DNA of 64,000 nt from Candidatus Melainabacteria bacterium SSGW_16 (GCA_004769085.1 DUDS01000019.1:446-64445); one strand, 5' to 3'; counted from the stretch's first letter, positions 1 to 59,489 are shown. The notes: a model not told the origin generated them from the letters alone. A program made the numbers and translations.

Positions 1-1362
1 AATTACAGTTTTATTTTTTCTATGTATCCACTCAGTGTATCTAAATCTATTAGTTCTTGCTGATATAACTTTGTATCCTACCCCTGGCATAGCAATAACT
101 GTAAGAGCAGCTTCTTTATGCTCAAGATCAGGATTTTTTAGAACACGTATAAAACTCTCTCCATCTATATTGTTTTTATGAGGTAGTGATGCAAGATCTA
201 TTAAAGTAGGAAATAAATCTACTAGTTCTACTAGTGAATCTGTTTTTATATCCTTTTTAATTAGTTTTGGATATCTAATTATAAGTGGCACTCTACTAGA
301 ATTTTCAAAACAAGTATGTTTTCCAAATGTTCCCTGTTCAAACAAGTGGTAACCATGATCACCTAAAAGTATGACAATAGTATTTTTTTCTAAATTGTTC
401 GCTTCTAAAGCTTTAAGCAAATGACCAACTAATGAATCTACATAAGAGACACAAGCAAAGTAACCTCTTAAAAGTTCTTTTTGTTTAGTCTCGTTTGAAT
501 ATAAATTTTTACTTATATCAGTGTATATTTCTATTTCACCAAGACCTCTGTCTATTGAAAGAGTTGGAGCGCCTTTAGGTAGGTTTTTGTTTTTTGATAA
601 CTTAATTTCAGAAATTGGATATAAGTCATAAAAGTTTTTTGGGGCTACAAAGGGTAGATGAGGCCGATGAAGTCCAACTGCAAGGAAAAATGTTTTGTCT
701 TTTAAGTATTGAAGTCTTTCAATAGCAGCCACTGTTATCCTTCCATCGTATAATTGTTGCTCAGGAAGATTAGGCGCTTCCCATGAGCTTCCTGCATACC
801 ATCTTTCTGAATCAGTCCACCACAAATCTTGCTCTTTAGAAAATGATCCTTTTTTAAAACTTTCTATTTGAAACTCAACATTTTTAACTGTCCTGTATTC
901 AGGGAAAAATAAAAAAGGTTTTGGGTAATATGCTGCACTTGTCCAGGATATTGAGTCCTGAATGTGAAATACTTTTCCAATTGATTCAGTTAAGTAAGCA
1001 TGATCTTTAAAATATTGTGGTAATGTTACTAGATTTGGCATTTTAGTTCTAAAGTATTCTATTAAAAAGTCTTCATTTGGCCTAAGTCCAGTTAAAAATG
1101 ATTGCCTTGAAGGTAAGCATGATGCAACTTGGCAATAGGCCATTGTAAATAAAATCCCTTCACTTGCGAGCTTGTCGATATTTGGCGTTTTCATATGATT
1201 TTTCCCATAACATTTAAGTTCAGGCCTTAAATCATCAACTATGATAAGTAAAATGTTTGGTTTTTTTGAATTGCTTGTTGGATAAAAGGAATTAAATAAA
1301 CTAATTGCAATTAAAAAGATTGCTAAAGTAAATAGTGCTCTAATGTAAAAATTTTTATTCAC
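1..1362 (-). CDS. Sulfatase (formylglycine-dependent arylsulfatase family), 3' end runs off window
   Basis: Reverse-strand translation from GTG at 1362 gives a signal-peptide-like N-terminus (VNKNFYIRALFTLAIFLIAISLF) followed by IIVDDLRPELKCYGKNHMKTPNIDKLASEGILFTMAYCQVASCLPSRQSFLTGLRP. This is the canonical sulfatase C-x-P-S-R-xxx-L/F-TG formylglycine signature. The reading frame stays open to position 1. Confidence 0.8.
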   Translation of the reverse strand, partial: MNKNFYIRALFTLAIFLIAISLFNSFYPTSNSKKPNILLIIVDDLRPELKCYGKNHMKTPNIDKLASEGILFTMAYCQVASCLPSRQSFLTGLRPNEDFLIEYFRTKMPNLVTLPQYFKDHAYLTESIGKVFHIQDSISWTSAAYYPKPFLFFPEYRTVKNVEFQIESFKKGSFSKEQDLWWTDSERWYAGSSWEAPNLPEQQLYDGRITVAAIERLQYLKDKTFFLAVGLHRPHLPFVAPKNFYDLYPISEIKLSKNKNLPKGAPTLSIDRGLGEIEIYTDISKNLYSNETKQKELLRGYFACVSYVDSLVGHLLKALEANNLEKNTIVILLGDHGYHLFEQGTFGKHTCFENSSRVPLIIRYPKLIKKDIKTDSLVELVDLFPTLIDLASLPHKNNIDGESFIRVLKNPDLEHKEAALTVIAMPGVGYKVISARTNRFRYTEWIHRKNKTVI

Positions 1363-1475
1363 TTTATTTAGTTGGGAAAGTTAATTAAAGATTATAGCGG
1401 TTTGTATGTGGACTATAAAAGTAAAATTGGTTAATACTTTGAATTAATCTCTTAAACTATGCAAGGATAGTTACC

Positions 1476-2648
1476 ATGAATGATGCTCCTCAAATTACCA
1501 CTATAATACCTTACTTTAATCCAAGATTTAACTTCTTTGTTGAAGCTATAGAGAGCCTTCTTTCACAATCCTACAAAAAGTGGGAATGCATAATAGTAAA
1601 TGATGGCAGCTCAATAGAAAGTAAAAATGCTCTAGAAGGATATATTCATAGCTTAAGCGATAAAAGATTTTCGATTTTGCACTTTGATAAAAACTATGGT
1701 TCTTCTGCTGCAAGAAATATTGGCATAAGAAATACAAAAAGTGAGATTGTTACTTTTTTAGATACAGATGATATACATTTCCCATGGTACTACCAAGAAA
1801 TTATTAATTTTTTTTCAAAGAGTCCTGAATATTTAATTCTTGCTAGTCCTTCCTATTTGCACATTAAAACAAAGGAAGAGAAAAGTATTTTTCTTGGAGA
1901 ATTTGAAAACAAGATTATTAACAAACCACATGGGATTGTTTTTCACGGTTTTAGATTTCCAAAGATTTTATCTAATGAGGAAAAAGAAGTCTATGATTTA
2001 TTAACAAAAAAAATTGCACTTAAGCTTTTTATAAATACTACTCCAAGGCTTGCACTTAAAAAAGAAGTATTTCAAAGGATTGGTTACGATCCACAATTTT
2101 TAACTAGTGAAGATTCTGATCTTTGTCTTCAGATTTTAAACAGCGAGGACCTATTGAACTCAACTTATATAACCTTAAATCCTTACTACTTACATAGAAT
2201 ATTTTCATCTAGGACAAGACTTACACAAAATTCACTGCTTGTTTTTCAAAATATGGCCAGATTGAAAAATAAATATAATGACAAAGCTTCTATTGCCTCA
2301 AAATCCCTTTGGCTCTTGGGCAGGAGGGATGAATGGCAGTTTAATACAATTATTTATGATCACTTAAATGGGCAATCCTTAATAAAGACAATTAGAGATA
2401 CAATGTCTACCTCTAAAAGTAAAAAAGGTAAAATTAAAAATCTCTGGAGGGTTTTAAAATTAATAATTAAGTATCAGCTTATTACTCAAATTCTTGGTAT
2501 AGATTATAGAGAACATATAATACCAAAGGCAGGAAGTACTAATAAAACTAAAGATATAGAGGAGCTTTTTATTAAGCACCTTCAAAGCATTGAACAAAAT
2601 AGAAATAAAACTTATGTAAATAAAACTTATGAAGCAATTTTTAATTAG
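1476..2648 (+). CDS. Family 2 glycosyltransferase (GT-A fold) with ~170-aa C-terminal domain of unknown function
   Basis: N-terminus IIPYFNP...ECIIVNDGSS...DKRFSILHFDKNYGSSAARNIGI...FLDTDD is the GT2 nucleotide-binding motif plus DxD signature. A divergent promoter region separates it from the sulfatase gene. Confidence 0.8.
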   Translation: MNDAPQITTIIPYFNPRFNFFVEAIESLLSQSYKKWECIIVNDGSSIESKNALEGYIHSLSDKRFSILHFDKNYGSSAARNIGIRNTKSEIVTFLDTDDIHFPWYYQEIINFFSKSPEYLILASPSYLHIKTKEEKSIFLGEFENKIINKPHGIVFHGFRFPKILSNEEKEVYDLLTKKIALKLFINTTPRLALKKEVFQRIGYDPQFLTSEDSDLCLQILNSEDLLNSTYITLNPYYLHRIFSSRTRLTQNSLLVFQNMARLKNKYNDKASIASKSLWLLGRRDEWQFNTIIYDHLNGQSLIKTIRDTMSTSKSKKGKIKNLWRVLKLIIKYQLITQILGIDYREHIIPKAGSTNKTKDIEELFIKHLQSIEQNRNKTYVNKTYEAIFN

Positions 2649-3789
2649 TGTAATTGTTCCATTTTACAATCCTGACTTTGATTTATTTAAAGTTGCTATC
2701 TATAGTATTCTTTCACAGTCATATACAAACTACGAAGTAGTTATAGTAAATGATGGTAGTACCTCCGAGAATAAAACGATCTTAGAAGACTTCATAGATA
2801 ACCTAAACGATAAGAGATTCTTGGTTATTCATTTAGATAGAAATTATGGACCTTCCTTTGCAAGGAATAAAGGGATAGATTCATCAAGGGGTGACATTGT
2901 AACTTTTCTTGATTCTGATGACTTACATCTTCCTTGGTATTATGAGGAAATTGCTAACCATTTTTTGCAGGATCCATCCTCACTTATACTTGGAACCCCA
3001 CCACTACATTACTTACCAAATAAAAAAAGAATATATTTAGATAGGCATCGTTATAGCCTAGTAGAACATCCAGAAAAGCTTGCATTCCCAGCTTTTAAAT
3101 ACTATCCAATTCTTTCGGATGAAGAAGAAAAGACGTTTAAATTACTTGCAAAAAAATGTGGTACAAAGCTTATGTTTTTTTCAACACCCCGCCTAGCTAT
3201 GAAAAAGGAAGCATTTGAAATTACAAAATATGATCCAGATTTTATAGCAATTGAGGATACGGAATTTTGTTTAAGTATCATTAATAATTCCGAGTTAATT
3301 AATAGGGCAATTGTAAATCCCAATTTTGGTTACCTATATAGAATATATTCTTTGAAAAATCGACACACAAGAAAAACTAATTTGAATTTTGAGCATATGT
3401 TCAAAATGATTAAAAAATATTCCAATGAAAACACTCTTGTGTATGACATACTTAATCACTGGAAAAGAAGGGATGAATGGAAATATTGTAGTAATATTTC
3501 AAAAATACTTAAAAATAGATCTAATGGGAATTTCATAGAGATTGCAAGAGAATTTTATACAGTTGGCAGAAAAAATCTCAAAGCTCTTTTTCTTTTGTGC
3601 AAAATAATTTTTAAGTACAAAGTACTTCATGAAGCCCTTGGTATAGATTTTCGAGCGTTTGAAATACCATCTAAAGTAAACATAGACAAGACAAAGGATA
3701 TAAAAGATAAATTTGAGTTTTATTTAACTAGTTACACGAGTGAAATTCAACGAAGATATGCAACTTTAGTAATGAAAAGCATATTTTAA
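2629..3789 (+). CDS. Family 2 glycosyltransferase, tandem paralog of preceding gene
   Basis: VIVPFYNP...EVVIVNDGST...DKRFLVIHLDRNYGPSFARNKGI...FLDSDD. It overlaps the previous stop by 20 bp. The C-terminal half aligns with the upstream paralog (both carry an RRDEW motif). Confidence 0.8.
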   Translation: MKQFLISVIVPFYNPDFDLFKVAIYSILSQSYTNYEVVIVNDGSTSENKTILEDFIDNLNDKRFLVIHLDRNYGPSFARNKGIDSSRGDIVTFLDSDDLHLPWYYEEIANHFLQDPSSLILGTPPLHYLPNKKRIYLDRHRYSLVEHPEKLAFPAFKYYPILSDEEEKTFKLLAKKCGTKLMFFSTPRLAMKKEAFEITKYDPDFIAIEDTEFCLSIINNSELINRAIVNPNFGYLYRIYSLKNRHTRKTNLNFEHMFKMIKKYSNENTLVYDILNHWKRRDEWKYCSNISKILKNRSNGNFIEIAREFYTVGRKNLKALFLLCKIIFKYKVLHEALGIDFRAFEIPSKVNIDKTKDIKDKFEFYLTSYTSEIQRRYATLVMKSIF

Positions 3790-4595
3790 TCAGTGACGCG
3801 TATCCTTGCAGCAAGCTGTTCTAATTTTTGAATAGCTGAAACAATCAAAACAAAAAGAATTAAACTTAGTAAAATCATATTGAATGAACCTGAAATACTA
3901 TCATAAATATCACCAGAAAACATTTCTCTTGTACGTAGAATTGCCCAAACAAAAGGTATGTTTTTATAAAACGTTCTTACATCTTCTGGAATAAAACTTA
4001 AGTTGTAAAAGATTGGAAGCCCTACTAAACTTAGCCTTACAAAAAATGGAAAAATTAATCTTAAATCTGGTATAAACTTTTGCAAGAAAGCAAAAATTAT
4101 ACAAAAAGAAGAAACAAATATAAAACAAACAAGAAGCACTGGCAAGAATTCAATAAAGTGGGAAAATAATTTCTTTTCAAAAAGGAATAAAAGAGAGTAA
4201 TAAACTATAACATTCACAAGAGTTACAATAAAATACACAACTACAACAGAGAGCGGAACTAAAAAAACTGGAAGTTTAAGATTAGAAATAAATTTTGGGT
4301 TTCTTGTAAGGCAATCAATGCTGTTTTGAGCTGACATTACAAAAAAAAGCCACAAAATAAGCAACAAATAAAAATCTATCAAAGAAATTTGACCAACTTC
4401 AAATTTGTGGGAAAAGAAAACCCTGACTCCAATGAAAGATGAGGCAATTAACAAAGGGTGCAATACAAACCAGGATATGCCCAAAAGAGTGTTCTTATAG
4501 CGTGTTTCTAACTCTCTTTTGACTAGCTCAATAAAAAGTTCTAGAGTTCTTGGTATCCATCTTCTAGCTGATACACTTATAATATTAGTATTCAT
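3786..4595 (-). CDS. ABC-2 type polysaccharide/teichoic-acid exporter permease (Wzm/KpsM/TagG-like)
   Basis: 269 aa. N-terminus LELFIELVKRELETRYKNTLLGISWFVLHPLL is typical of the ABC-2 permease family, followed by about 6 hydrophobic segments. No cognate ATPase gene is adjacent. Confidence 0.7.
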   Translation of the reverse strand: MNTNIISVSARRWIPRTLELFIELVKRELETRYKNTLLGISWFVLHPLLIASSFIGVRVFFSHKFEVGQISLIDFYLLLILWLFFVMSAQNSIDCLTRNPKFISNLKLPVFLVPLSVVVVYFIVTLVNVIVYYSLLFLFEKKLFSHFIEFLPVLLVCFIFVSSFCIIFAFLQKFIPDLRLIFPFFVRLSLVGLPIFYNLSFIPEDVRTFYKNIPFVWAILRTREMFSGDIYDSISGSFNMILLSLILFVLIVSAIQKLEQLAARIRVTD

Positions 4596-4617
4596 TAATA
4601 TTTATAGATTATCACAG

Positions 4618-5724
4618 ATGTTATTCACAGATACTATTAAAGAACCAATTTTAAGTAGAGAAGGCAAAAAATTAAAGCCACCTATCTTTCTTACAGGGTG
4701 TGGTAGATCAGGAACATCTTTATTACAAAGAGTTATATCAAATCACAAAAATATCTACTCCTTTAGGTCTGAAACTCACTTTTTTGGGAGATACTACAAT
4801 ATTCCATCATTGAAGGAAGTTAATATTGAGAATCTGTTGGAAAGTGCTAAATATACTGGTGCAATGGAAGTTTTTTATAAGGAGTTTGAAAGTAACCAAG
4901 ATTATGAAAACCTAGCTCTCTCATTGCTTTCTGTAATGTTTCATACCATAGAAATTGCCCCGGATATGGTTAAAAATAAGAATTATCAAAGCAACGTACT
5001 ACAAATTTATGGAGAAATCAAAGAACTTGATGATTATAAAAACGTAAGCAACAGATATGAAATGTTTAACCTCTTGGCAAATCACTTAACAATAAAATCA
5101 AATAAAAAAAGATGGGCAGACAAGTCTTCTGTGAATATGTTTAATACACATACAATTTTAGACTTTTTTCCAGATGCAAAGTTTATTGAAATATACAGAG
5201 ATCCAAGAGGAGTATATTATTCCTGGACAAGATGCCCGTTTAAGTTTTTTAGATTAGCAAGTCCAATTACATGCTCAGAAATGTGGAGAAAAACTTCTAG
5301 ATTAGGAGAAAAACTTGAAAAAGAACTGAATGGCAAATATTATAGGATAAAATATGAAGATTTGCTTATAAGTCCCGTAAAAGAGGTTGAAAAGATCTGC
5401 AACTTTATTGAAGAAGAATTTGATCCTAATATGCTTCAGGTTAAAACTACAAATAGCTCCTTTAGACAATACAATGGTAAAGAAGGAATAGACAGTCAAA
5501 GAACAAGCCACTGGAAAAACTCACTATCAAAAAGTGAACTTATCTTTATAGATTTTGCTACAAGAAAAAATAGAACAAACCTTGGTTATCCTGACATTGC
5601 ACCTAGGTTAACACCTATAAATATCTTACCCTTTTTAGTATTTTTTACTAAACTGTGTCTAAAAGCTAAAACAAATCCTATTAAGTATATTAAAAAAATA
5701 ATAAAAGAAGATGCAAACACTTAA
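4618..5724 (+). CDS. Sulfotransferase (PAPS-dependent, Sulfotransfer_3-like)
   Basis: KPPIFLTGCGRSGTSLL is the 5'-PSB P-loop-like motif, and EIYRDPRGVYYSW is the 3'-PB RDPR motif. The ORF-track start at 4519 would overlap the divergent permease gene, so I prefer the ATG at 4618 (MLFTDTIKEP). Confidence 0.7.
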   Translation: MLFTDTIKEPILSREGKKLKPPIFLTGCGRSGTSLLQRVISNHKNIYSFRSETHFFGRYYNIPSLKEVNIENLLESAKYTGAMEVFYKEFESNQDYENLALSLLSVMFHTIEIAPDMVKNKNYQSNVLQIYGEIKELDDYKNVSNRYEMFNLLANHLTIKSNKKRWADKSSVNMFNTHTILDFFPDAKFIEIYRDPRGVYYSWTRCPFKFFRLASPITCSEMWRKTSRLGEKLEKELNGKYYRIKYEDLLISPVKEVEKICNFIEEEFDPNMLQVKTTNSSFRQYNGKEGIDSQRTSHWKNSLSKSELIFIDFATRKNRTNLGYPDIAPRLTPINILPFLVFFTKLCLKAKTNPIKYIKKIIKEDANT

Positions 5725-7495
5725 AAGTACAACTCAAACTAAAAAGATAACAACAAATGCTTTTGACATAAAATTAAAACCACCTATTTTTATATTAGGT
5801 TCTGGTAGATCAGGAACCTCACTACTTAGAAGTATTTTGAATAATCATCCTGATATTTACTGTATGGAAGGAGAAACTCATTTATTTTCACCGGAGTCAA
5901 ATCCTTATCTTGAAGAATTAGAATTTTTTCAAAGTTCAAATGACATTAAAAGCTTAATATTTACAATTATTTCATCTATATTATTTGGGCATGAATGCAC
6001 AGCTCTATTTGCAAGAAGAAAGAAGTTTCCAAAGGAAGTTATTGAAATATACCACGATCTTCAAGACTTCCTTTTGACTGTAGGCTCGCAAGAAAAGTAC
6101 AAAATCTTTAATATTTGTATAGGACACATAACACTGAAAGAAAATAAAAAAAGGTGGCTTGAAAAAACTCCAAACAATATATTTAATTTACCTGATATTC
6201 TCTCCCTTTATCCAGATGCAAAGTTTATTGAAATATACAGAGATCCAAGGGGAGTATATTATTCCTGGAAAAATGCTAAGCAAGATTATTTTAAAAAAAC
6301 TAATATTATTGAGTGTATAAAAAAGTGGAGCAAAACTTTTGAGTATTCAAAAAAATATGCTCATGAGTTACCAAATCAATTTTACAAACTCAAATATGAA
6401 AACCTGGTCGAAGATCCTAAAGTAGAACTGATTAGTCTTTGTAATTTTTTAAATGAAGATTTCAATCAGTCGTTACTAGGGGTGACAACAAGGAGCCTTG
6501 GTTTTGACGAGACTTCAAGCACTACTATATGGAAAGATAATCTAATAAAAAACGAATTACTATTGATTGACTTGAAAACCAAGGAATACAGGAAAGAGCT
6601 TGGCTATATTGATTCCGGAGTAAAACTTAATTTAATTAACATGATTCCATTTTGTCTTTTTTATATAAGAAACAAATTTTTTGGTCGAATAAATTTTCTT
6701 ACTGAAAAGCTTTTTGGTCAAATCAATTTTCTTACTGAAAAGCTTTTTGGTCAAATCAATTTTCTTGCTAGAAAGCTTTTTGGTCGCATAAATCTTCGTA
6801 CTGAAAAGCTTTTTGGTCGCATAGCTTTGCTTATTAATAAATACATAGCTATTGCAAATGAACTTCTTCAATCAATTTTAAGGAAACCATATTCCTTTAG
6901 AAGAAAATGTAAAACTTTGTATTGGGTTATTAAAAGAAAAAGAAAGGTACAAGAGTACATTGATACGCATAAGGTTAAAAAACTTCACATAGGAGCTGGT
7001 CCTAATATGCTTAAAGACTGGTTAAATACAAATATTATGCCAATTACAAATGAAGATATTTTTTTAGATGCTTCAATACGTTTTCCATTTGATGGTAATA
7101 CTTTTGATTGCATATCTATTAATCAGTCCATAGAGTATCTGAAATATAACCAGTCCAAACACTGTTTGAATGAGTGCTTCAGAGTCTTGAAGCCAGACGG
7201 AAAAATCAGGATCATTACCGTAAATTTGGAGAACTTTATTAAAATCTATTCAAAGAAAGACCCAACAAAAGAAGAAAAAGATTACATAAAATTTGTAATA
7301 GATTCATGCATGCCAGATATTGGCATCTATAAAAATGCTTTTATTATGAACAGTCTGTTTAGCAGGCTTAATTATAAATTTATTCATGACTATGAATCAC
7401 TGAATGACATGCTGGAAAAAATTGGATTTATTTACATTAATTTTTTATCAAAGAATGATTTCGAGACTTTAGTGGTTGAAGCCAGGAAGCCATAA
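5711..7495 (+). CDS. Bifunctional sulfotransferase / class I SAM-dependent methyltransferase fusion with internal 11-aa tandem-repeat linker
   Basis: The N-terminal domain has KPPIFILGSGRSGTSLL and EIYRDPRGVYYSW, a sulfotransferase paralog of the upstream gene. The middle carries FGRINFLTEKL x about 5. The C-terminus has HIGAGPNMLKDW...FDCISINQSIEYL...CFRVLKPDGKIRI, a Methyltransf_11-like SAM-binding fold. Confidence 0.75.
   Translation: MQTLKSTTQTKKITTNAFDIKLKPPIFILGSGRSGTSLLRSILNNHPDIYCMEGETHLFSPESNPYLEELEFFQSSNDIKSLIFTIISSILFGHECTALFARRKKFPKEVIEIYHDLQDFLLTVGSQEKYKIFNICIGHITLKENKKRWLEKTPNNIFNLPDILSLYPDAKFIEIYRDPRGVYYSWKNAKQDYFKKTNIIECIKKWSKTFEYSKKYAHELPNQFYKLKYENLVEDPKVELISLCNFLNEDFNQSLLGVTTRSLGFDETSSTTIWKDNLIKNELLLIDLKTKEYRKELGYIDSGVKLNLINMIPFCLFYIRNKFFGRINFLTEKLFGQINFLTEKLFGQINFLARKLFGRINLRTEKLFGRIALLINKYIAIANELLQSILRKPYSFRRKCKTLYWVIKRKRKVQEYIDTHKVKKLHIGAGPNMLKDWLNTNIMPITNEDIFLDASIRFPFDGNTFDCISINQSIEYLKYNQSKHCLNECFRVLKPDGKIRIITVNLENFIKIYSKKDPTKEEKDYIKFVIDSCMPDIGIYKNAFIMNSLFSRLNYKFIHDYESLNDMLEKIGFIYINFLSKNDFETLVVEARKP
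6680..6830 (+). repeat. In-frame 33-bp tandem repeat (about 4.5 copies) inside the sulfotransferase-methyltransferase gene
   Basis: Units tttggtcgaataaattttcttactgaaaagctt / tttggtcaaatcaattttcttactgaaaagctt / ...gctagaaagctt / tttggtcgcataaatcttcgtactgaaaagctt. They encode the FG(R/Q)INFLTEKL hendecad repeats. Confidence 0.9.
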
Positions 7496-7500
7496 ATCTG

Positions 7501-8748
7501 TCATTTTACTGACATTGATGGCTGCTTATTAAGCATAAGAACTATATCTTTAACTGATTTTATTATATATTCAATATCAGCCTCAGTATTTTCTCTTCCA
7601 AGAGTCAGCCTCAATGAACCATTTCGAAATTCTTCAGGAACTGTAAGAGCAACTAAAACATGAGAAGGTTCAAAGTTAGATTCTTTCTTATCTCTGCTTT
7701 TACACGCAGACCCTGAGCTACATGCTATACCTCTCAGATCAGCTTGTAAAACAAGTGTTTCACCCTCAACATTTTTTACGCATAGACTTACATGTCCAGG
7801 AATTCTGTACAGAAATTTTTCTTCACTGTAATTTTCTTTGATTTTATCTAAGGTAACCCCTGTAAAAACCAAATCGTTGAGTTCTTCCAGTCCTTCCATA
7901 AGTTTGATTTGCAAGAATCTAAGTTTTTTTACATTCTCATCCATCTCAGAATGCATAAGTTTTGCTGCTTTTGCAAAACCTACTATTGAGGGCAAACTTT
8001 CAGTCCCTGATCTTAAATTATTCTCTTGTCCACCACCAACCAAATAAGAACTAAAATCTTCAGGTGACTTGATATACAATGCACCTACTCCTTTTGGTCC
8101 ATAAATTTTATGTGCAGACATGGACATAAAGTCCATATCCATATACTTGACATTTACAGGTACTTTTCCAAATGCCTGAACAGAATCTGTATGAAAAAGA
8201 ACATTATGTTTCCTGCATACTTTAGAAATTTTTCCTATACTCTGTATCGTGCCAATTTCATTGTTTGCATGAATTACTGAAACAAGCAATGTTTTATCTG
8301 AAATGAAAGATTCAAGCTGGTTTAAATCTAAAAACCCTTCCTTATCAACATCCAGCCATGTTATTTTCCAGCCTTTTTTCTCAAGGTATTCCAGAGGCTC
8401 TTTAACTGAAGGATGTTCTATCTTCGAGGTAATTATATGTTTCTCTTTATTCTTGATTTTTCCATCTTCTAATAATCGTACCAGTCCAAAAATTACAGTA
8501 TTATTTGATTCTGTACCTCCGCTTGTAAAAATAATCTGATCTTCTTCAGCATTAATCACAGATGCAATTTCATTTCTGGATTTGTTCAGATACTCGCTGG
8601 CTTTTCTGCCAAAAGCATGAATAGAAGAAGGATTTCCAAAGTTTTCAGTTAATAAAGGCAACATTGCTTCTACCACTTCTGCTCTTACTCTAGTGGTTGC
8701 ACTGTGATCTGCATATATGATTCTTTTTTTATTGTACATAAGTTTCAT
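7501..8748 (-). CDS. iscS: Cysteine desulfurase (IscS/NifS family, PLP-dependent)
   Basis: ADHSATTRVRAEVVEAM...GNPSSIHAFGRKA...SAHKIYGPKGVGALY, and the conserved active-site Cys region SSGSACKS. Confidence 0.8.
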   Translation of the reverse strand: MKLMYNKKRIIYADHSATTRVRAEVVEAMLPLLTENFGNPSSIHAFGRKASEYLNKSRNEIASVINAEEDQIIFTSGGTESNNTVIFGLVRLLEDGKIKNKEKHIITSKIEHPSVKEPLEYLEKKGWKITWLDVDKEGFLDLNQLESFISDKTLLVSVIHANNEIGTIQSIGKISKVCRKHNVLFHTDSVQAFGKVPVNVKYMDMDFMSMSAHKIYGPKGVGALYIKSPEDFSSYLVGGGQENNLRSGTESLPSIVGFAKAAKLMHSEMDENVKKLRFLQIKLMEGLEELNDLVFTGVTLDKIKENYSEEKFLYRIPGHVSLCVKNVEGETLVLQADLRGIACSSGSACKSRDKKESNFEPSHVLVALTVPEEFRNGSLRLTLGRENTEADIEYIIKSVKDIVLMLNKQPSMSVK

Positions 8749-9160
8749 TTTCTTTTGAAGCCTTAAAGCTTATTGAGTCAAAGTATAAATCTTCCAGCGA
8801 TATTGATTTCAATATGCCATATATATTACGGTTTAATTTTTGCCACAGCTGATTTGTTACTTCAAAATCTCTGGATGAATTAGGAGCAACATTTACAGGG
8901 CCTTCAACAGCCTGAATAATATCTGCAAGTGATATTTGTTTTATATCCCTGGAGAGCACGTAACCCCCTGCAGGTCCACGCATGCTTTTTACAAGACCGG
9001 ACTGTCTGAGTTTTATAGCAATTTGTTCTAAAAAAGGTAGAGGAATATTCTGGGTATCTGCAATTTCTCTAAGTGACACAGGATTTTTTGATTTAGTCTT
9101 ATGCAATGCAATGCCAATCATAGCCTGGATTGCATATTGTCCTTTAGTGGTTAACTTCAT
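8729..9160 (-). CDS. iscR: Rrf2-family transcriptional regulator (IscR-like)
   Basis: MKLTTKGQYAIQAMIGIAL...VSLREIADTQNIPLPFLEQIAIKLRQSGLVKSMRGPAGGYVL is the Rrf2 wHTH domain. It lies immediately upstream of iscS. The start is set at MKLTTKG rather than the upstream in-frame Met at 9193. Confidence 0.75.
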   Translation of the reverse strand: MKLTTKGQYAIQAMIGIALHKTKSKNPVSLREIADTQNIPLPFLEQIAIKLRQSGLVKSMRGPAGGYVLSRDIKQISLADIIQAVEGPVNVAPNSSRDFEVTNQLWQKLNRNIYGILKSISLEDLYFDSISFKASKENETYVQ

Positions 9161-9246
9161 AGTTAAATTATAATATAGATACTTATGCGTCATTTGAACT
9201 CACCTTAAAAATCAAGTGCAATCTTTACAGCTTTTATAAGAAAACC

Positions 9247-9360
9247 TTAAGTGTGCTTACACAAAAGCGAAACCCATACCCTAAGCGCAGCGTTGGAAGC
9301 GCCAAGCGGACAAGCGGAGCATGGGTATGGGTTGAGCATAAAAAGTGTAAGCACACTTAA
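9247..9360. repeat. GC-rich ~113-bp nested-hairpin element, copy 1 (TIR ttaagtgtgcttacac / gtgtaagcacacttaa)
   Basis: Perfect 16-bp terminal inverted repeat. Inner stem aaacccataccc / gggtatgggtt. GC-rich core in an AT-rich genome. It lies 10 bp after the fliR stop and is near-identical in architecture and sequence to 22676-22788. Confidence 0.85.
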
Positions 9361-9369
9361 ATAACAGTA

Positions 9370-10155
9370 CTAATACAAATACCTGTTAGGATCCAGAAAT
9401 AGTTTTGCTAAAATCTGAAACAAAGCCGGAAGAAGAATCAACATGAGCAATATACCTACTGAAGGTTTTATTGAAAAACTAACCTGAAAAGCATTAATCT
9501 GAGGGGCAGCTCTCGACATAAGACCAAGTATTAAATCAACAGTAAGAAGTATCATAATAATTGGTGAAACAATAAGAAATGCAATTGAAATTAAATCTGC
9601 AGTAGCTTTTAAAAGTTTAAGAAAATTAAAATTAAAGCTGTATACAATTACCGGGAAAGTATTATAACTTTTGAATAGTCCTTCAATAACCTTTTCCATT
9701 CCTCCAATTGAAACAAAAATCACAAGTCCAAGCATATTAAAGAAATGTCCCATTATTGTTGTTTGACTTTGTGTACCAGGATCAAAAACAGTTGCTGCAT
9801 TTAATGCCATCTGCGAATCAAGCATTTCACCTGCAACCCTTGCAATCTCAATCACAAGGCTTGAAACCCACCCGATAAACATTCCAATCGCTGCATTCAT
9901 AAAAATCAGATAAATAAATTTATAACCCTTTGGATATTCTGAAGGTGTATCAATCATTGGCATAAATATTAATGAGAGTACAATTGCAAAACCTACCTTT
10001 ACAAGTGCGGGTATTTGTTTGCTTCCAATTAATGGTGCTGTGCTTATAAAACCAATAGTCCTTGCAAAGATCAACAACAAAATAATCCATACCCCGCCCA
10101 GTTGGGTAAGAATTTTTGTTTCATTAATTATAAAATCAAACATCAAATACCTCAT
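9370..10155 (-). CDS. fliR: Flagellar type III export gate component FliR
   Basis: 261-aa polytopic membrane protein. ARTIGFISTAPLIGSKQIPALVKVGFAIVLSL matches the FliR N-terminal region. It is the last gene of the fliPQR operon. Confidence 0.8.
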   Translation of the reverse strand: MRYLMFDFIINETKILTQLGGVWIILLLIFARTIGFISTAPLIGSKQIPALVKVGFAIVLSLIFMPMIDTPSEYPKGYKFIYLIFMNAAIGMFIGWVSSLVIEIARVAGEMLDSQMALNAATVFDPGTQSQTTIMGHFFNMLGLVIFVSIGGMEKVIEGLFKSYNTFPVIVYSFNFNFLKLLKATADLISIAFLIVSPIIMILLTVDLILGLMSRAAPQINAFQVSFSIKPSVGILLMLILLPALFQILAKLFLDPNRYLY

Positions 10156-10931
10156 TCAAGCCAGGTGGGTGGCACCTGATCCTTTGGAGCAGTATCAGAT
10201 TCATTTACAGTTTTTGGATTGTCTTCAATTACATCCTGAATACCTATAGGGGAAGCATTTTGAGCAGGGGCTTGTATTTCATTTACATTTGCCTGAGGAT
10301 TTTCATTCTGCTTAATAATATTTGTTGCCGGTGAAGGCACTGGTGTAGGGGTAGGGGTTGGAGCAGGAGCAGTCTGAATATTTGTTAACTCTTGTTCTTT
10401 AACATTTAAAGAATCTGTCTGGGTTTCAATAATTTTATTTTGGTTTATCGGAATAGAAGGCGGCAATAGTTTTGTTATCTGAGGAGGATTTGGAACTTCA
10501 GGTGCACCGGCGTATGGTACTCCAGGCGGCACACCCCCCTGAGGAAGAAGCTCTTCAATTTTTTCAGCCTTGGGAAGTTTTGGTACAGGAATCTCATTCT
10601 CTTCATCAAAAGTAATATTAAATTTATTTTCATCAAAAGCACCTGTAGGGACTGCTTTTTGTGATTGTTTAGGCACAAATGAAAAGGCCGAGTTAAGTGT
10701 CCTTGTTGCATATTGATTTAAATACTGATACATCCAGAAACCTGCAATAATAATCAGTCCAAAAACCCCGATAATTTTTAATGCAGAACCAATTGTCTGT
10801 TCCTGCACCTGTGTAGCAGCCTGCAGAATACCAATCACAAGACCAATTAATGCAGCAGCAAGCACAAGAGGTCCTGAAACAATCAATACAACGATTATTC
10901 CATCCCTAACTGCTTGTGGCATCCATTCCAT
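10152..10931 (-). CDS. fliQ: Flagellar export gate component FliQ with ~170-aa Pro/Gln-rich C-terminal extension
   Basis: The first ~88 aa (LAAALIGLVIGILQAATQVQEQTIGSALKIIGVFGLIIIAGFWM) align with canonical 89-aa FliQ. The ORF then continues through a low-complexity P/Q/T-rich tail (PTPTPTPVPSPATN) and overlaps the fliR start by 4 bp. Confidence 0.7.
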   Translation of the reverse strand: MEWMPQAVRDGIIVVLIVSGPLVLAAALIGLVIGILQAATQVQEQTIGSALKIIGVFGLIIIAGFWMYQYLNQYATRTLNSAFSFVPKQSQKAVPTGAFDENKFNITFDEENEIPVPKLPKAEKIEELLPQGGVPPGVPYAGAPEVPNPPQITKLLPPSIPINQNKIIETQTDSLNVKEQELTNIQTAPAPTPTPTPVPSPATNIIKQNENPQANVNEIQAPAQNASPIGIQDVIEDNPKTVNESDTAPKDQVPPTWLE

Positions 10932-13392: not shown

Positions 13393-14274
13393 ATGAAAGA
13401 AGTTGAAGTACCAGACTATTTTACCCCTAATCCTAAAAGGCCACTGGAGGCTGACAGGCTTATTGAATTTTTAAGGAAGTTCTGGGGTTATTTCTTAACT
13501 GCAATTTTTTTACTTATGTTTCTCTCAGGATCTATAGTCAGGGTGGGTGCCGGAGAGAGAGCAGTACTCTTCAATATTTTTGGTGGTGTTGAAAAAAGAA
13601 TTCTGGGTGAAGGAATTCATATAATTGCCCCATTCATTCAGAAAGCAACTGTCTATGACGTAAAACAAGCAACTTACAGTTTTGCATCTGAAGATCAAAA
13701 CAGTCAGGGACATATTGTAGGTGGGGAAATTCATTCCCTAACCTCAGATGGTCAGAAAGTAGATATCGAATTAAGTGTTCGCTTAAGACCTGTTCCTGAT
13801 AAATTATGGTTGCTCCACAAGCACATAGGACCTAATTACCTTTATAAAATTGTAGTTCCAAAAACAAGAACTGTTTTAAGAGAAGTTCTTGCTGCTTACC
13901 CTGTTGAAGATGTTTATAGCGGAAAAAGGCAGGAGATACAAAACATGATTCAGGATTTTCTTAAAAAAGATCTTGAAAAAAAATATTTCATTGAGGTTGA
14001 AGAAATTCTATTCAGGAATGTAAAGTTTTCAAAGGAATTCCAGGATGCAATCGACAGAAAACAGCAGGCATATCAGGAATTCTTAAAAATGGAATATGTA
14101 GTTGCTGGAGAACGCGCGAAAAAAGATGCAAAAATATCACAAGCTGAGGGCGAAGCCAAAGCAATTAATCTCAGAGTAAATGCATTAAGATCAAATCCTG
14201 ACTTTATAAGGTACAGAAGAGCACAGGTTTTTGGAAAACGGGCAAAACTTATCTTCACAGATAATTTTGATTAA
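13393..14274 (+). CDS. SPFH/band-7 (prohibitin/HflK-C-like) membrane protein
   Basis: N-terminal TM helix followed by VRVGAGERAVLFNIFGGVEKRILGEGIHIIAPFIQKATVYDVKQATYSF, a PHB-domain core. Confidence 0.8.
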   Translation: MKEVEVPDYFTPNPKRPLEADRLIEFLRKFWGYFLTAIFLLMFLSGSIVRVGAGERAVLFNIFGGVEKRILGEGIHIIAPFIQKATVYDVKQATYSFASEDQNSQGHIVGGEIHSLTSDGQKVDIELSVRLRPVPDKLWLLHKHIGPNYLYKIVVPKTRTVLREVLAAYPVEDVYSGKRQEIQNMIQDFLKKDLEKKYFIEVEEILFRNVKFSKEFQDAIDRKQQAYQEFLKMEYVVAGERAKKDAKISQAEGEAKAINLRVNALRSNPDFIRYRRAQVFGKRAKLIFTDNFD

Positions 14275-14292
14275 GGAGAGAAACCCATTAAA

Positions 14293-15162
14293 ATGGAAAA
14301 AGAAAATCTCATAGCAATAGGAATGGCAATAACCTTTTCATTGTTTTGTATCTTAAGCGGTTCAATGATAAGAGTAATTCCAGCCGGTTATGTTGGTGTT
14401 GCATTTAATTTGTTTGGTGGTGTTGAGAAAAGAATACTGAATGAAGGAGTTAACTTTTTAATTCCATTTGTTGAATCTGTAACAGTATATGATGCCAGGA
14501 AAATCTCATATAACTTTTCCGACAATTACGACAAATCCATTGTAGGTCCAAGTATCAAATGCCAGACAAATGACGGTCAGAATGTTTCAATCGATGTAAC
14601 AGTAATAGCACATATAAACAAAGAGAAAGCATGGAACCTCCACCAAAGTATAGGAAGAGACTATGGAGAAAGATTAATCGTACCTCAAACCAGAAGTATT
14701 TTCCGAAATATAGTTGCAAAATACCCGATTGATACGGTGTACACTTCAGGAAGAACAGGGCTTGCAAGAGATGCTGAAGACTCACTCAAGCAGTCATTTC
14801 TAAAAAGCGGGCTACAGCTGGATGAGTTATTAATCAGAGCAATAGGTTTTTCACCTTCATTTGCTGAAGCTGTTGAAAGAAAACAGATCGCGCTTCAGGA
14901 ATCACAAAGACAAAACTGGATTAAAAAAACTGCTGAAAGAGAAAAAGAAAGAAAAATTATTGAGGGAGAAGGAGATGCAATTGCAGTTAGTGTAAAAGGA
15001 ATGGCACTTCAGCTTGATCCAAAGATTGCAGAGCTTGAATTTCTTGAGCAGTTGGATCAGAGGAATACTGAGATTCAGGTTATTACAGGCACTAAAAGTG
15101 CAATTCTTTCTATAGGCGAACTTTTTAATAATCCTACAAATGAACTGCCAAAGAAAGAATAA
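14293..15162 (+). CDS. SPFH/band-7 protein, tandem paralog
   Basis: IRVIPAGYVGVAFNLFGGVEKRILNEGVNFLIPFVESVTVYDARKISYNF, same architecture as the upstream gene. Confidence 0.8.
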   Translation: MEKENLIAIGMAITFSLFCILSGSMIRVIPAGYVGVAFNLFGGVEKRILNEGVNFLIPFVESVTVYDARKISYNFSDNYDKSIVGPSIKCQTNDGQNVSIDVTVIAHINKEKAWNLHQSIGRDYGERLIVPQTRSIFRNIVAKYPIDTVYTSGRTGLARDAEDSLKQSFLKSGLQLDELLIRAIGFSPSFAEAVERKQIALQESQRQNWIKKTAEREKERKIIEGEGDAIAVSVKGMALQLDPKIAELEFLEQLDQRNTEIQVITGTKSAILSIGELFNNPTNELPKKE

Positions 15163-56811: not shown

Positions 56812-58431
56812 TTACTTATCGCCAGGCTTAGGAGGAGGAAATATTCTGATTCTTCTCTTCGGCTCCTGTCCTATACTAAGACTGTCTAATTTATATTCTT
56901 CTACAAGTTCATGTTGCAATTTTCTTATTTCAGCATTTCTGGGACTAAGGTCAATAGATTTTTCTGTATCCATTACCATGCTTATAGCACCCCGGACTTC
57001 TTCAAGAGCATTTTGAACATCATCAACTTTCTTTTTTTCAATTTCTTCTATAATGAAATCACTTATTAAATCAGGGAAGAGTTCTTTTAGTGCATTTTGA
57101 ATGCCATCAATGGTATTGTTCTTGACTATATAAAGAGGTATTTTATGCTTCTTTGCAAGTTCAAGAATCTTCGCCCCGACTTTTGCATAATTTTTAAGTG
57201 CAAAAATGACACCTGCTTCATCAATTGTTCTGCACACCATTCCAGGAAGCTGAAGATTTCTTATAACCCTTTCAAGTTGTCCACGGCTCACTGCATAGGG
57301 ATAGATTTTAATGGTTTCAACAGGATGCTCAGCCATCTCTGTAGTAGAAAATGAGACTTGTCCCTGGGAAATTGTTTCCTTCTTTGTAAGGATTTCAACC
57401 TTTCCGGTTTTCAGATCAAGTTTACGAATTTCAGGGAACAGGGCTTTTCCTCTTAAAAGATTATCAACTGCAACAGCCACTTCTTTATGGATTGCAAGTC
57501 TTTGATGATCCAGGATTTCAATTGCAATCTGAAATGTTGGTTCATTGGCTCTTTCAAGTATTGTTTTTTGTGTGCCACGTCTTTTTGCTTCTTCATCTCC
57601 CAGAGTAACTGTTTGTATCCCTCCGATCAGATCAGATAAAGTAGGATTTTTTAAGAGATTTTCAAGCGCATTTCCGTGAGCAGTACCTATAAGCTGCACG
57701 CCTCGTTCAGCAATAGTTCTTGCTGCCTGTGCTTCAAGTTCAGTACCAATCTCATCAATTATTATCACTTCTGGAGTATGATTTTCCACAGCTTCAATCA
57801 TTACAGCATGCTGAAGCTCAGGTCTTCCCACCTGCATTCTTCTTGCACGACCAATTCCATGGTGCGGAATATTACCATCACCTGCAATTTCATTTGAAGT
57901 ATCAATTACAATTACTCTTCTGTTTAAATCTTCAGCCAGAAATCTTGCCATCTCCCTGAGTTTTGTTGTTTTCCCGACTCCTGGGGGACCTAACAATAGG
58001 ATAGATTTCTTTGATTCTACAAAATCCCTGATAATATCAATTGTCCCTGTTATCGATCTGCCAACTCTGCATGTTAGTCCTACTATTTCACCCCTGCGAT
58101 TTCTAATACAACTTATCCTGTGAAGTGTCCGTGCAATACCAGCCCTGTTGTCAGAGGTGAAGTCTCCCACCCTGTTAACAGCATAATTAATATCCCCCAG
58201 AGTAACAGGTTCATGTTCAAGTTCAATTCTCTTACCATTAAAAAACCGTGCTTCAGGTAATCTTCCAAAATCCATAACTATTTCAATAAGCCCAGCCAAG
58301 TTATGTTTTTCAAGTGATGTCCTGAGCTTATCAGGAAGCACATCCAACATAAGAGGCAAATCCTGTGCAGGGACATGATCAATTTCCTGGATTTCTTCAT
58401 TTTTCAAATTTAACTTTTCTTCTTTAGTCAT
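56812..58431 (-). CDS. AAA-type ATPase of the SpoIIIAA/Ycf45-like family with C-terminal nucleic-acid-binding region
   Basis: LLLGPPGVGKTTKLREMARFL Walker A, VIIIDEIGTELEAQAARTIAERGVQLIGTAHG Walker B, and an N-terminal region like SpoIIIAA. Confidence 0.55.
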   Translation of the reverse strand: MTKEEKLNLKNEEIQEIDHVPAQDLPLMLDVLPDKLRTSLEKHNLAGLIEIVMDFGRLPEARFFNGKRIELEHEPVTLGDINYAVNRVGDFTSDNRAGIARTLHRISCIRNRRGEIVGLTCRVGRSITGTIDIIRDFVESKKSILLLGPPGVGKTTKLREMARFLAEDLNRRVIVIDTSNEIAGDGNIPHHGIGRARRMQVGRPELQHAVMIEAVENHTPEVIIIDEIGTELEAQAARTIAERGVQLIGTAHGNALENLLKNPTLSDLIGGIQTVTLGDEEAKRRGTQKTILERANEPTFQIAIEILDHQRLAIHKEVAVAVDNLLRGKALFPEIRKLDLKTGKVEILTKKETISQGQVSFSTTEMAEHPVETIKIYPYAVSRGQLERVIRNLQLPGMVCRTIDEAGVIFALKNYAKVGAKILELAKKHKIPLYIVKNNTIDGIQNALKELFPDLISDFIIEEIEKKKVDDVQNALEEVRGAISMVMDTEKSIDLSPRNAEIRKLQHELVEEYKLDSLSIGQEPKRRIRIFPPPKPGDK

Positions 58432-58439
58432 AATTGAAA

Positions 58440-59489
58440 TTAATTATAATTCCCACTTACAGCAGACGATTGTACTAATGATCTTGCTATACGAAAAGCA
58501 CTGGAAAAATTCTGATCACTATATATATCATTTAAATATGGAATTAACAGTTTTCTTGCATAAGAACCAACAGCTATTCCGTTAACCGGAAGGCCAGAGT
58601 TTTTTACATTGTCAAAAGAAAACTCTGTGGTACCGCCTGCAATCTGCAAATATACAGGCATTTTTTCTTCCTCTATAAGCTTTGCTACATGAAGGCTCAA
58701 TTCATCATTATTATGCCCGTTTTTACCTGCATTACTCCTGCCGCCACTCATGGGAATACCATCACACTGCAAGATAATATTACTCCCTGCAAGCTCAAAA
58801 CAAAGCCTAGCTGCATCCTTGATTTCAATATCACTTAATAAGCCACTTCCAAGGCTAAATGAAACCAGTTCAAGTTTCTTTACTAAATCTTTAATTTTGT
58901 CCCATATTTCCCTGATTCTTAAATAGTTTTTCCCAAAATGAAACTCAATTGATTTAAGGCCTAGAAGGAGCATATCATTTAAAGTATTATAAGGATCCAT
59001 TTTCACTTCAGTCATATTTAGCGCTTTTACATGGCAATATGAAGGACAGATACCACAGCCATAACATCTTTCTTTATTGTAAATAAAATCTTTCACTCCT
59101 TCATTTTCGTTAATTTTAAATGCTTCCGTAGGACAGACTTTTACACAAGCTCCACATACATCACACAAGTTTCTGTCTACTTCTACTTTTCTGAAATGTG
59201 GATCAAGATCAAGCTGGATGCTTGCCATTAGAAGAGGTGGTTTCAAATTATATTTAAATCTTTTATCCTTTTTACCAAACTCAATAGCTTTTTCAACACC
59301 ATTTTTTGCTGCAATAACAATATCTGCATGCGGAGCCAGATCAATAACATGTGCACCGGCTAAAGTAAAAATAAACGACAAATTTTCAACAAGTACATTA
59401 TCAGTAAAACTAGCTCCACAAATAAGTTTAAAGAAACTTTTATTTCCTAGTGCTTCGAAAACATGGTTTTCTTTTTTAAGAGTCAGCAT
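58440..59489 (-). CDS. 4Fe-4S dicluster ferredoxin-domain protein
   Basis: CDVCGACVKVCP and CYGCGICPSYC motifs. The flanking domains are unassigned. Confidence 0.45.
   Translation of the reverse strand: MLTLKKENHVFEALGNKSFFKLICGASFTDNVLVENLSFIFTLAGAHVIDLAPHADIVIAAKNGVEKAIEFGKKDKRFKYNLKPPLLMASIQLDLDPHFRKVEVDRNLCDVCGACVKVCPTEAFKINENEGVKDFIYNKERCYGCGICPSYCHVKALNMTEVKMDPYNTLNDMLLLGLKSIEFHFGKNYLRIREIWDKIKDLVKKLELVSFSLGSGLLSDIEIKDAARLCFELAGSNIILQCDGIPMSGGRSNAGKNGHNNDELSLHVAKLIEEEKMPVYLQIAGGTTEFSFDNVKNSGLPVNGIAVGSYARKLLIPYLNDIYSDQNFSSAFRIARSLVQSSAVSGNYN

Follow-up and report, generated by a model that had tools for sequence, protein, structure and literature searches.

A 64-kb stretch of DNA from Candidatus Melainabacteria bacterium SSGW_16 (GCA_004769085.1 DUDS01000019.1:446-64445)—here called the window and numbered from its first nucleotide—opens with a block of six genes (positions 1–7495) that encode two sulfotransferases of the 3′-phosphoadenosine 5′-phosphosulfate (PAPS) type, ST1 and ST2, two family-2 glycosyltransferases, GT2a and GT2b, a Wzm/TarG-like ATP-binding cassette (ABC)-2 permease, and a formylglycine-type sulfatase. 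Five of these genes form a core—GT2a, GT2b, the permease in antisense orientation, ST1, and ST2—whose order and strands are kept in at least six lineages at 32 to 85% amino-acid identity. In our judgment, the locus is a sulfated-glycan module whose probable product is a surface sugar polymer carrying sulfate and methyl groups. A preliminary description of the same DNA had proposed that a sulfated surface glycan is synthesized here and exported by an ABC-transporter-dependent route. The glycan context fits the first half of this proposal, as Wza and Wzc are encoded upstream and the sulfatase has relatives of matching kind; the ABC-dependent route, on the other side, is doubtful.

Genes were called by listing and translating open reading frames (ORFs), followed by Pfam and NCBIfam profile scans. 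Each of the six gene families that the preliminary description had listed is present, and all six block genes score above the Pfam curated cutoffs for their families (Table 1). For ST1 and ST2, the assignment as genuine PAPS-type sulfotransferases can be regarded as secure, judging from profile and motifs in both cases and additionally from the predicted fold of ST2. Against a PF13469 cutoff of 27 bits, ST1 scores 92.3 and ST2 107.8 bits. The 5′-phosphosulfate-binding (5′-PSB) motif and the RDPR motif of the 3′-phosphate-binding (3′-PB) site lie exactly where they had been placed: GCGRSGTS at 4696–4719 and RDPR at 5197–5208 in ST1, which also bears a hydrophobic C-terminal tail, and GSGRSGTS at 5798–5821 and RDPR at 6239–6250 in ST2. 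These PAPS-binding motifs are invariant in nine fusion homologues and in the ST1 and ST2 proteins of five loci. An AlphaFold2 (AF2) model of the ST2 domain reaches predicted local distance difference test (pLDDT) values of mostly 80 to 95, and a Foldseek search with it returns a probability of 1.00 to TPST1, TPST2, the sulfotransferase domains of olefin synthase (OLS) and CurM, Stf1, and 3-OST. TPST1 (5wrj) is matched at E=3.2e-10, TPST1/2 are also the best profile match (E=1.6e-14), and the heparan-sulfate 3-O-sulfotransferases rank below TPST1/2, OLS, CurM, and mycobacterial Stf1. The start of ST1 is probably the ATG at 4618 rather than the upstream TTG at 4519, because the corresponding ATG is the start that gene callers assign in relatives.

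The two sulfotransferases are 36% identical paralogues, and the orthologues of each are far closer to one another (57–74% identity for ST1), which points to an old duplication of which both copies have been kept. A 148-nt patch of 78% identity between ST1 and ST2 was considered as a trace of gene conversion; this was rejected, as orthologues are closer than paralogues there, and the patch corresponds by its sequence to the conserved PAPS-binding core.

ST2 constitutes the N-terminal part of a fusion protein, ST2-MT, in which a helical linker leads to a class-I S-adenosylmethionine (SAM)-dependent methyltransferase (MT) domain with motif I (HIGAGPN) at 6986–7006. The preliminary description had mentioned neither this fusion nor the strand of the permease nor the half of the locus upstream of the window start. 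The linker holds five 11-residue units of the form FG(R/Q)INFLTEKL, which correspond at the DNA level to a 33-bp tandem repeat at 6678–6823 (Tandem Repeats Finder: period 33, 4.4 copies, 88% matches). Its hydrophobicity has a period of 3.69 residues (power 122 vs 50±16 in shuffled sequences), which is an 11/3, or hendecad, pattern; AF2 models it as long helices at low confidence, and the model of the MT domain is also of low confidence. ST2-MT homologues have linkers of 36 to 138 residues, in several of which 11-residue units can be recognized. The 98% identical protein of a close strain (P0001, from locus L005) has exactly one unit fewer—four instead of five. By its sequence, the linker repeat is thus a repeat-mediated length polymorphism between close strains. 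The fusion itself is rare: when 1.84 billion cluster representatives were searched exhaustively with HMMER, the two domains occurred together in one protein in only about five clusters at 50% identity (P0001, P0007, P0072, P0073, and P0074, the P labels denoting ST2-MT homologues). Stand-alone relatives of the MT domain, about 245 residues long, are numerous (E 1e-50 to 1e-70).

Table 1. Features of the block and of the one ATPase gene linked to the core. Locations refer to the window unless a related locus is named; aa, amino acids.
Feature	Location	Strand	Details
Type I (formylglycine-type, S1) sulfatase	1..1362	minus	PF00884 E=2.4e-45, 155.6 bits; SGSH_C
GT2a, family-2 glycosyltransferase	1476..2648	plus	390 aa; PF00535 E=2.1e-26; DTDD at 1761-1772
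GT2b, paralogous family-2 glycosyltransferase	2629..3789	plus	386 aa; PF00535 E=2.5e-31; DSDD at 2911-2922
Wzm/TarG-like ABC-2 permease	3786..4595	minus	269 aa; PF01061 31 bits, cutoff 26.9
ST1, PAPS-type sulfotransferase	4618..5724	plus	368 aa; PF13469 7e-26, PF00685 1.9e-15
ST2-MT fusion	5711..7495	plus	594 aa; PF13469 1.2e-30 and PF08241 6.3e-7
ST2 sulfotransferase domain	5711..6631	plus	aa 1-307 of the fusion; PF13469, domain aa ~20-305
Predicted helical linker of ST2-MT	6632..6967	plus	aa 308-419 of the fusion
Class-I SAM methyltransferase domain of ST2-MT	6968..7495	plus	aa 420-594 of the fusion; Methyltransf_11, PF08241 30.4 bits, cutoff 21.2
Wzt-like nucleotide-binding domain gene	L001 7409-8092; L007 7048-7632	minus

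All six ORFs of the block are intact, the sulfatase alone running off the window start, and the GC content of the block is 30.0% compared with 34.8% elsewhere in the window. Both the permease and the sulfatase lie on the minus strand, which makes the permease antisense to both flanking gene pairs. GT2a and GT2b overlap by 20 nt, GT2b and the permease stop by 4 nt, and ST1 and ST2-MT by 14 nt; the start codons of the permease and ST1 stand back to back, 22 bp apart, and the intergenic gaps within the block measure 113, 22, and 5 bp. From strand and overlaps, we infer at least four transcription units: the sulfatase, GT2a-GT2b, the permease, and ST1-ST2MT. The block is, hence, not a single operon, and the cotranscription that the preliminary description had considered does not extend across it, albeit in the trivial sense that two of its genes are encoded antisense. 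A promoter and terminator scan gave counts not above shuffled expectation (41 vs 42.9 and 1 vs 3.8), and an Rfam scan of positions 1–9400 gave no credible match.

The conservation of the five-gene core, which that description had named as a further test, is apparent from related loci of metagenomes and metagenome-assembled genomes (MAGs), labeled L001, L003–L008, L087, and L088: the glycosyltransferase, permease, and sulfotransferase genes are kept together. The six lineages are the window with L005 and L087, L088, L003, L004, L001 with L007, and L008. Identity to the window amounts to 83% for the L088 permease, 62 to 77% per gene in L003 and L004, 48 to 57% in L001/L007, and 32 to 43% in L008, where the second sulfotransferase comes without the MT fusion; a short contig, L006, covers the permease/ST1/ST2 part only. 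For window versus L088, Nei–Gojobori estimates at unsaturated dS (0.39–0.68; dS, synonymous and dN, nonsynonymous divergence) give dN/dS ratios of 0.28 for the sulfatase, 0.23 for GT2a, 0.16 for GT2b, 0.20 for the permease (dS 0.39), and 0.22 for ST1. All five genes tested, the lone permease and the sulfatase included, are under purifying selection.

The two glycosyltransferases are 39% identical over their full length. GT2a carries a C-terminal extension of about 150 residues with a conserved RRDEW and a hydrophobic helix, and its orthologues in L001, L003, L004, and L088 are 56 to 81% identical. For GT2b, the best solved matches are GalT1, the K4CP chondroitin synthase, and heparosan synthase, all confined to the GT-A core; an AF2 model of GT2b, computed from an alignment with only the window paralogue, has a pLDDT of 37.5. 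The permease occupies the identical position and strand in every locus seen. It has multiple hydrophobic segments, matches an NCBIfam galactan Wzm model at 1.4e-6, and finds its closest solved chains in Aquifex Wzm (1.6e-5) and TarG (5e-4), with the Wzm-like N-terminal interface helix well matched.

A near-identical contig (ENA ERZ27253376 k141_875966, loci L005/L087), 98 to 100% identical to the window, continues beyond the window start. Upstream of position 1, L087 reads Wzc, Wza, a 292-aa protein, an SGNH fragment, a GT2, a truncated GT2, an HTTM remnant, a Methyltransf_24 protein, and the sulfatase; Wzc (Wzz domain plus autokinase) has 711, Wza (Poly_export) 412, and the intact upstream GT2 370 residues. 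Further profile matches of these two proteins are to families for exopolysaccharide export and for chain-length determinants, of which only the tyrosine-autokinase model scores above its cutoff. Because of this continuation with Wzc, Wza, and GT2 genes, the block reads as the distal 7.5 kb of a polysaccharide-export locus of roughly 17 to 20 kb. The linkage of Wzc/Wza to the module is seen in three separate lineages, upstream in L087 and L008 and downstream in L006. Wza is always followed by a conserved protein of 286 to 295 residues (L087 18354–19232, minus; L006 6816–7676; L008 2349–3236) that begins with a signal sequence and matches no Pfam or NCBIfam family; it is a candidate periplasmic partner of the export apparatus. 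On the other side of the block, Pfam scans of 50 ORFs revealed only housekeeping genes, flagellar genes, and lpxB/kpsF.

ST2-MT homologues are rare and derive from metagenomes and Candidatus Melainabacteria MAGs, including groundwater bins of about 34% GC. Flagellar export genes, an ldpA homologue, and lpxB are also present in the window and fit a diderm, flagellated organism of the cyanobacterial lineage. We take the host to be a low-GC, groundwater-type Melainabacterium, i.e., a member of the nonphotosynthetic sister lineage of cyanobacteria.

The sulfatase is represented in the window by the N-terminal 454 of its 497 residues, with the 3′ end outside; L005/L087 hold a full-length 497-aa copy. 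Its C-x-P-S-R motif is intact as had been described (CLPSR at 1105–1119, within CLPSRQSFLTG), and hydrophobic residues 4 to 22 form an N-terminal signal or anchor. The nearest solved chains are 6hhm (E=2.8e-81), which we take to be the Formosa agariphila ulvan sulfatase of family S1_7, and human iduronate-2-sulfatase (5.5e-59). With these S1 enzymes it shares strong full-length similarity, the CxPSR motif, and the N-terminal export signal; unlike them, it stands beside genes for biosynthesis and not for degradation. A formylglycine-generating maturase (anSME or FGE) is absent from the 56 window ORFs scanned. The sulfatase gene adjoins the module in the window lineage and L088, lies about 3.3 kb off in L001/L007, and is absent within 10 kb of the module in L003, L004, and L008. 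Hence, the sulfatase that the preliminary description had counted as part of the locus is present with its motif intact, but is accessory to the module, being near it in three of the six lineages.

Among bacteria, sulfated extracellular polysaccharides are described as a cyanobacterial speciality, and the synechan cluster (xss, on pSYSM of Synechocystis sp. PCC 6803) is the only such biosynthetic cluster dissected genetically (Maeda et al. 2021; PMC8205485). As in the window-type loci, its sulfotransferases lie among glycosyltransferases, and export runs over polysaccharide copolymerase and outer-membrane export proteins (PCP/OPX; Wzc/Wza). XssE, one of its two sulfotransferases, is homologous to the window enzymes over nearly the whole domain at 22 to 23% identity (E=6e-19 for ST2; E=1e-14, 23%, for ST1), and XssA gives no meaningful alignment with them (E=0.005). 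The two hosts belong to one phylum-level lineage, the window host being nonphotosynthetic. The window-type loci differ from synechan in that they show no Wzx/Wzy and bear a Wzm-like permease in place of a flippase, in that their glycosyltransferases all belong to one GT2 paralogue family, and in that one sulfotransferase is fused to an MT and a sulfatase is linked. None of the regulators XssS, XssR, and XssQ turned up in the locus gene tables, although no search was aimed at them. We found no relevant literature on sulfotransferases or exopolysaccharides in Melainabacteria/Vampirovibrionia. Sulfotransferase-bearing polysaccharide clusters are known from the cyanobacterial lineage, and the protein families themselves hold no surprise. 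Distinctive are the nonphotosynthetic host, the rare ST-MT fusion with its repeat-variable linker, the Wzm-like permease with an absent or atypical ATPase, and the linked S1 sulfatase.

For the working of such a module, we envisage the following, each single step being less certain than the reading as a whole. The two soluble GT2 enzymes with intact DxD motifs, together with the upstream GT2 paralogues, would build or extend the glycan on the cytoplasmic side of the inner membrane. ST1 and ST2—each with a hydrophobic or amphipathic helix after its catalytic domain—would O-sulfate it from PAPS at two different positions, and the MT domain fused to ST2 would add a methyl group. The Wzm-like permease would provide passage through the inner membrane, and the upstream-encoded Wzc and Wza might then carry the polymer across periplasm and outer membrane. 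In some lineages only, the exported S1 sulfatase might trim or recycle sulfate outside the cytoplasm. The carbohydrate nature of the acceptor is suggested by this context of GT2 enzymes, Wza/Wzc, and linked sulfatase. Observed are the protein families, their motifs, the synteny, and purifying selection; acceptor, sulfated product, attachment to the membrane, and the energizing of the permease are inferred from them.

Several observations weigh against this reading. The nearest sulfotransferases of solved structure have peptide tyrosine or polyketide intermediates as substrates, so homology does not provide the acceptor. XssE, the relative from the synechan cluster, is itself without demonstrated biochemical activity, and its deletion left the accumulation of extracellular polysaccharide unchanged (PMC8205485). 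The pathway is, moreover, incomplete as seen. Genes for PAPS synthesis, which the preliminary description had suggested looking for, appear neither in the window nor in the 20 to 22 kb loci of the relatives; an initiating phosphoglycosyltransferase is seen neither in the window nor in L087, L088, L001, L003, and L004, but could sit elsewhere; and the locus gene tables show no Wzx or Wzy, with no match to Polysacc_synt or Wzy_C. Upstream of the block, the window lineage shows decay (L087 16237–18190; L005 696–3120): a GT2 is truncated to 141 residues (the L088 copy is intact with 384), an HTTM remnant of 71 residues is left (77% identity to its L003 counterpart, an HTTM protein), and an SGNH/GDSL fragment retains 120 residues of a 350-residue protein. 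The MT domain of the window and P0001 is shortened by about 29 residues near its C terminus, which seven of eight aligned homologues keep, and its segment after motif II, SINQSIEYL, diverges from the FSEHQIEHL (or close variant) of seven of the eight. This divergent segment recurs in the distant relative P0073, from which the glycine-rich GxGxG SAM motif has been lost as well. Because of these missing residues, the divergent segment, and the loss of the SAM motif in P0073, the window lineage may belong to a subclade with altered or lost methyltransferase activity.

A further reservation concerns the energy source of export, as a nucleotide-binding domain (NBD) is also absent from the 20 to 22 kb loci L087, L088, L003, L004, and L008. 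That the permease lacks a partner ATPase in the window had been noted before and holds: an LSGG[QEM] ABC signature occurs in no frame of the 64 kb, and the scans of the 50 ORFs beyond the block contain no ABC_tran domain. At the junction of GT2b and permease, no NBD remnant is left in the five lineages without ATPase. The search beyond the window that the preliminary description had proposed returned, across the relatives' loci, a single module-linked ABC ATPase, which is found in L001/L007 directly downstream of the permease: a Wzt-like NBD of 227 residues (Aquifex Wzt, E=1.1e-30). Its Walker A is GEQDSGKT instead of the GPNGAGKS of Wzt, the Q-loop position lacks conservation, and the H-loop histidine is replaced by threonine (FIITATS vs IIFVSHD); it retains Walker B and the S-x-G of the signature, and the C-terminal carbohydrate-binding domain is missing. 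In L007, which is 99.9% identical to L001 over 21 kb of DNA, a 96-bp in-frame deletion removes 32 residues from this NBD—possibly an assembly artefact. From these residues, the NBD looks catalytically impaired. Its relatives at E<=1e-10 among 5.8 billion proteins are only itself and the deletion variant in a word-seeded search. For an orthologue encoded in trans, this word-based search thus gave only the NBD's own variants, though a canonical, unrelated Wzt could escape it. In comparison with the Wzm/Wzt systems (Aquifex Wzm-Wzt, TarGH, and mycobacterial Rv3781/Rv3783), the permease class agrees and the L001 NBD follows in the usual operon order, whereas window-type loci lack the NBD in five lineages and have an atypical one in L001/L007. 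With no ATPase near the module in five lineages and the sole one looking impaired, the ABC-transporter-dependent route is doubtful. The permease may be energized by an unrelated NBD from elsewhere in the genome or may no longer depend on a dedicated ATPase.

A small sulfated, methylated glycolipid or lipo-oligosaccharide, following the enzyme logic of Nod factors or mycobacterial sulfoglycolipids, would require the same set of GT2, sulfotransferase, MT, and ABC-2 permease; in the rhizobial Nod factor system, these are NodC, NodH, NodS, and NodIJ. The hydrophobic or amphipathic helix in every enzyme would suit a lipid-linked substrate, polymerase, flippase, and initiating transferase are not seen in the locus, and NCBIfam gives weak echoes of NodC, NoeE, and NodI far below the cutoffs. 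These echoes, however, cover generic regions only, at 5 to 20% of the cutoffs. Wzc/Wza are components of polymer export with linkage to the module in three separate lineages, and a polymer of repeat units would also agree with the three to four GT2 paralogues of each locus, which leaves the glycolipid unlikely. We regard it as rather unlikely, too, that ST2-MT acts as a chain terminator and length ruler that places a sulfate and methyl cap, sulfate standing in for phosphate, on the nonreducing end of a cytoplasmically made polymer, with the variable linker setting the length. WbdD and newer Klebsiella terminators combine a kinase, an MT, and a coiled-coil ruler (PMC3482155; PMC11231755). ST2-MT resembles them as a bifunctional transferase of an anionic group in which an SAM-dependent MT is joined through a long helical segment of variable length—36 to 138 residues among homologues, and differing by one unit between 98% identical strains—and which is encoded beside a Wzm-type permease. 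It departs from them in having a sulfotransferase in place of the kinase, in its domain order, and in a linker that stands between the two catalytic domains rather than between these and a membrane anchor. Furthermore, the sole Wzt-like ATPase bears no domain for reading a cap, L008 has two sulfotransferases and no MT fusion, and the linker structure is of low confidence, its 11/3 periodicity fitting an amphipathic helix on the membrane surface equally well. The likeness is best taken as an analogy and not as membership. As the ATPase is missing in five lineages and atypical in the sixth, and the permease is under purifying selection, the permease might also work independently of an ATPase. 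That both hold together—ST2-MT as a sulfate-based counterpart of WbdD with a hendecad ruler tunable in steps of 33 bp and the permease as a passive or Wzc-coupled conduit—is a long shot.

Two further explanations were weighed. In a peptide-tailoring cluster, the sulfotransferases would modify tyrosines of a peptide or protein, as in RaxST/RaxX or TPST, and the GT2 enzymes would glycosylate it. This draws on TPST1/2 as the best solved matches by profile and fold and on PqqD, Transglut_core3, an NTP_transf_5 protein, and a 55-aa ORF in the neighborhoods of relatives. TPST1/2 and the polyketide sulfotransferase domains (CurM, olefin synthase) are the closest solved structures and sequences and have the 5′-PSB and 3′-PB sites in common with ST1 and ST2, yet identity is only 17 to 22%, the family PF13469 is broad, the genes around the window enzymes are of the polysaccharide kind, and the window-type core contains no polyketide synthase, precursor peptide, or peptide exporter. 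Neither in nor beside the five-gene core is there a small ORF or a peptidase-type exporter, and the window lineage has none of the peptide-like genes, whose position varies among the relatives. Sets of PqqD, HprK-like, and NTP_transf_5 proteins are, besides, a recurrent accessory of Wza/Wzc exopolysaccharide loci, and we have down-weighted the peptide cluster to very unlikely. A locus in decay that has ceased to make a product in the window lineage would account for the truncated GT2, the HTTM remnant, and the SGNH piece upstream, for the shortened MT domain, and for the lack of an ATPase. With all six ORFs of the block intact, dN/dS ratios of 0.16 to 0.28 for the five genes compared, and the divergent MT variant itself conserved in the distant P0073, decay appears highly improbable. 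The sulfated, methylated surface polymer is the reading we prefer.

If this reading is true, an XssE-like module in the nonphotosynthetic sister lineage would mean that glycan sulfation is not tied to phototrophy, and the five-gene core could serve as a compact cassette for making sulfated, methylated glycans in heterologous hosts. With its variable repeat linker, the ST-MT fusion offers a handle on the positioning of glycan-modifying enzymes, as does the permease retained without ATPase on the energizing of Wzm-type channels.

The surroundings of the core vary between loci. Directly downstream of ST2-MT, a Bac_globin-domain gene is found in L001 (12154–13047) and L003 (11972–12721), and IscS/Rrf2 in the window lineage and L004. 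Upstream of the core, L003 (1–5761), L004 (645–5789), and L008 (3280–5601) encode an NTP_transf_5 protein of 767 to 774 residues that has a weakly HprK-related-kinase-like middle part and a C-terminal signal-peptidase-I-like domain. It is accompanied by a conserved 55-aa ORF with a Tyr/Ser/Thr-rich tail and by a pair formed of a 195-aa protein and an HTTM membrane protein. In L006 (7852–9963), Wzc, Wza, and the 286-aa protein are directly followed by PqqD, Transglut_core3 (lasso-B2-like), and a TPR protein, with no asparagine-synthase-like cyclase seen before the contig end.

Three observations concern the rest of the window. The FliQ homologue at 10152–10931 (minus) has 259 residues, FliQ usually having about 90; Bac_export_3 covers residues 7 to 75 and is followed by a proline-rich low-complexity extension of about 180 residues, and the long form also occurs in L004 (242 residues) and L005. 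Between the flagellar export operon and hisZ/hisG, two tandem SPFH/Band-7 genes (13393–15162, plus) are kept in L004 and L005. At 56812–59489 (minus), the LdpA homologue (Fe–S, "light-dependent period") adjoins a protein with AAA, R3H, and PTPase domains—a cyanobacterial clock-associated gene pair that occurs here in a lineage presumed to be nonphotosynthetic.

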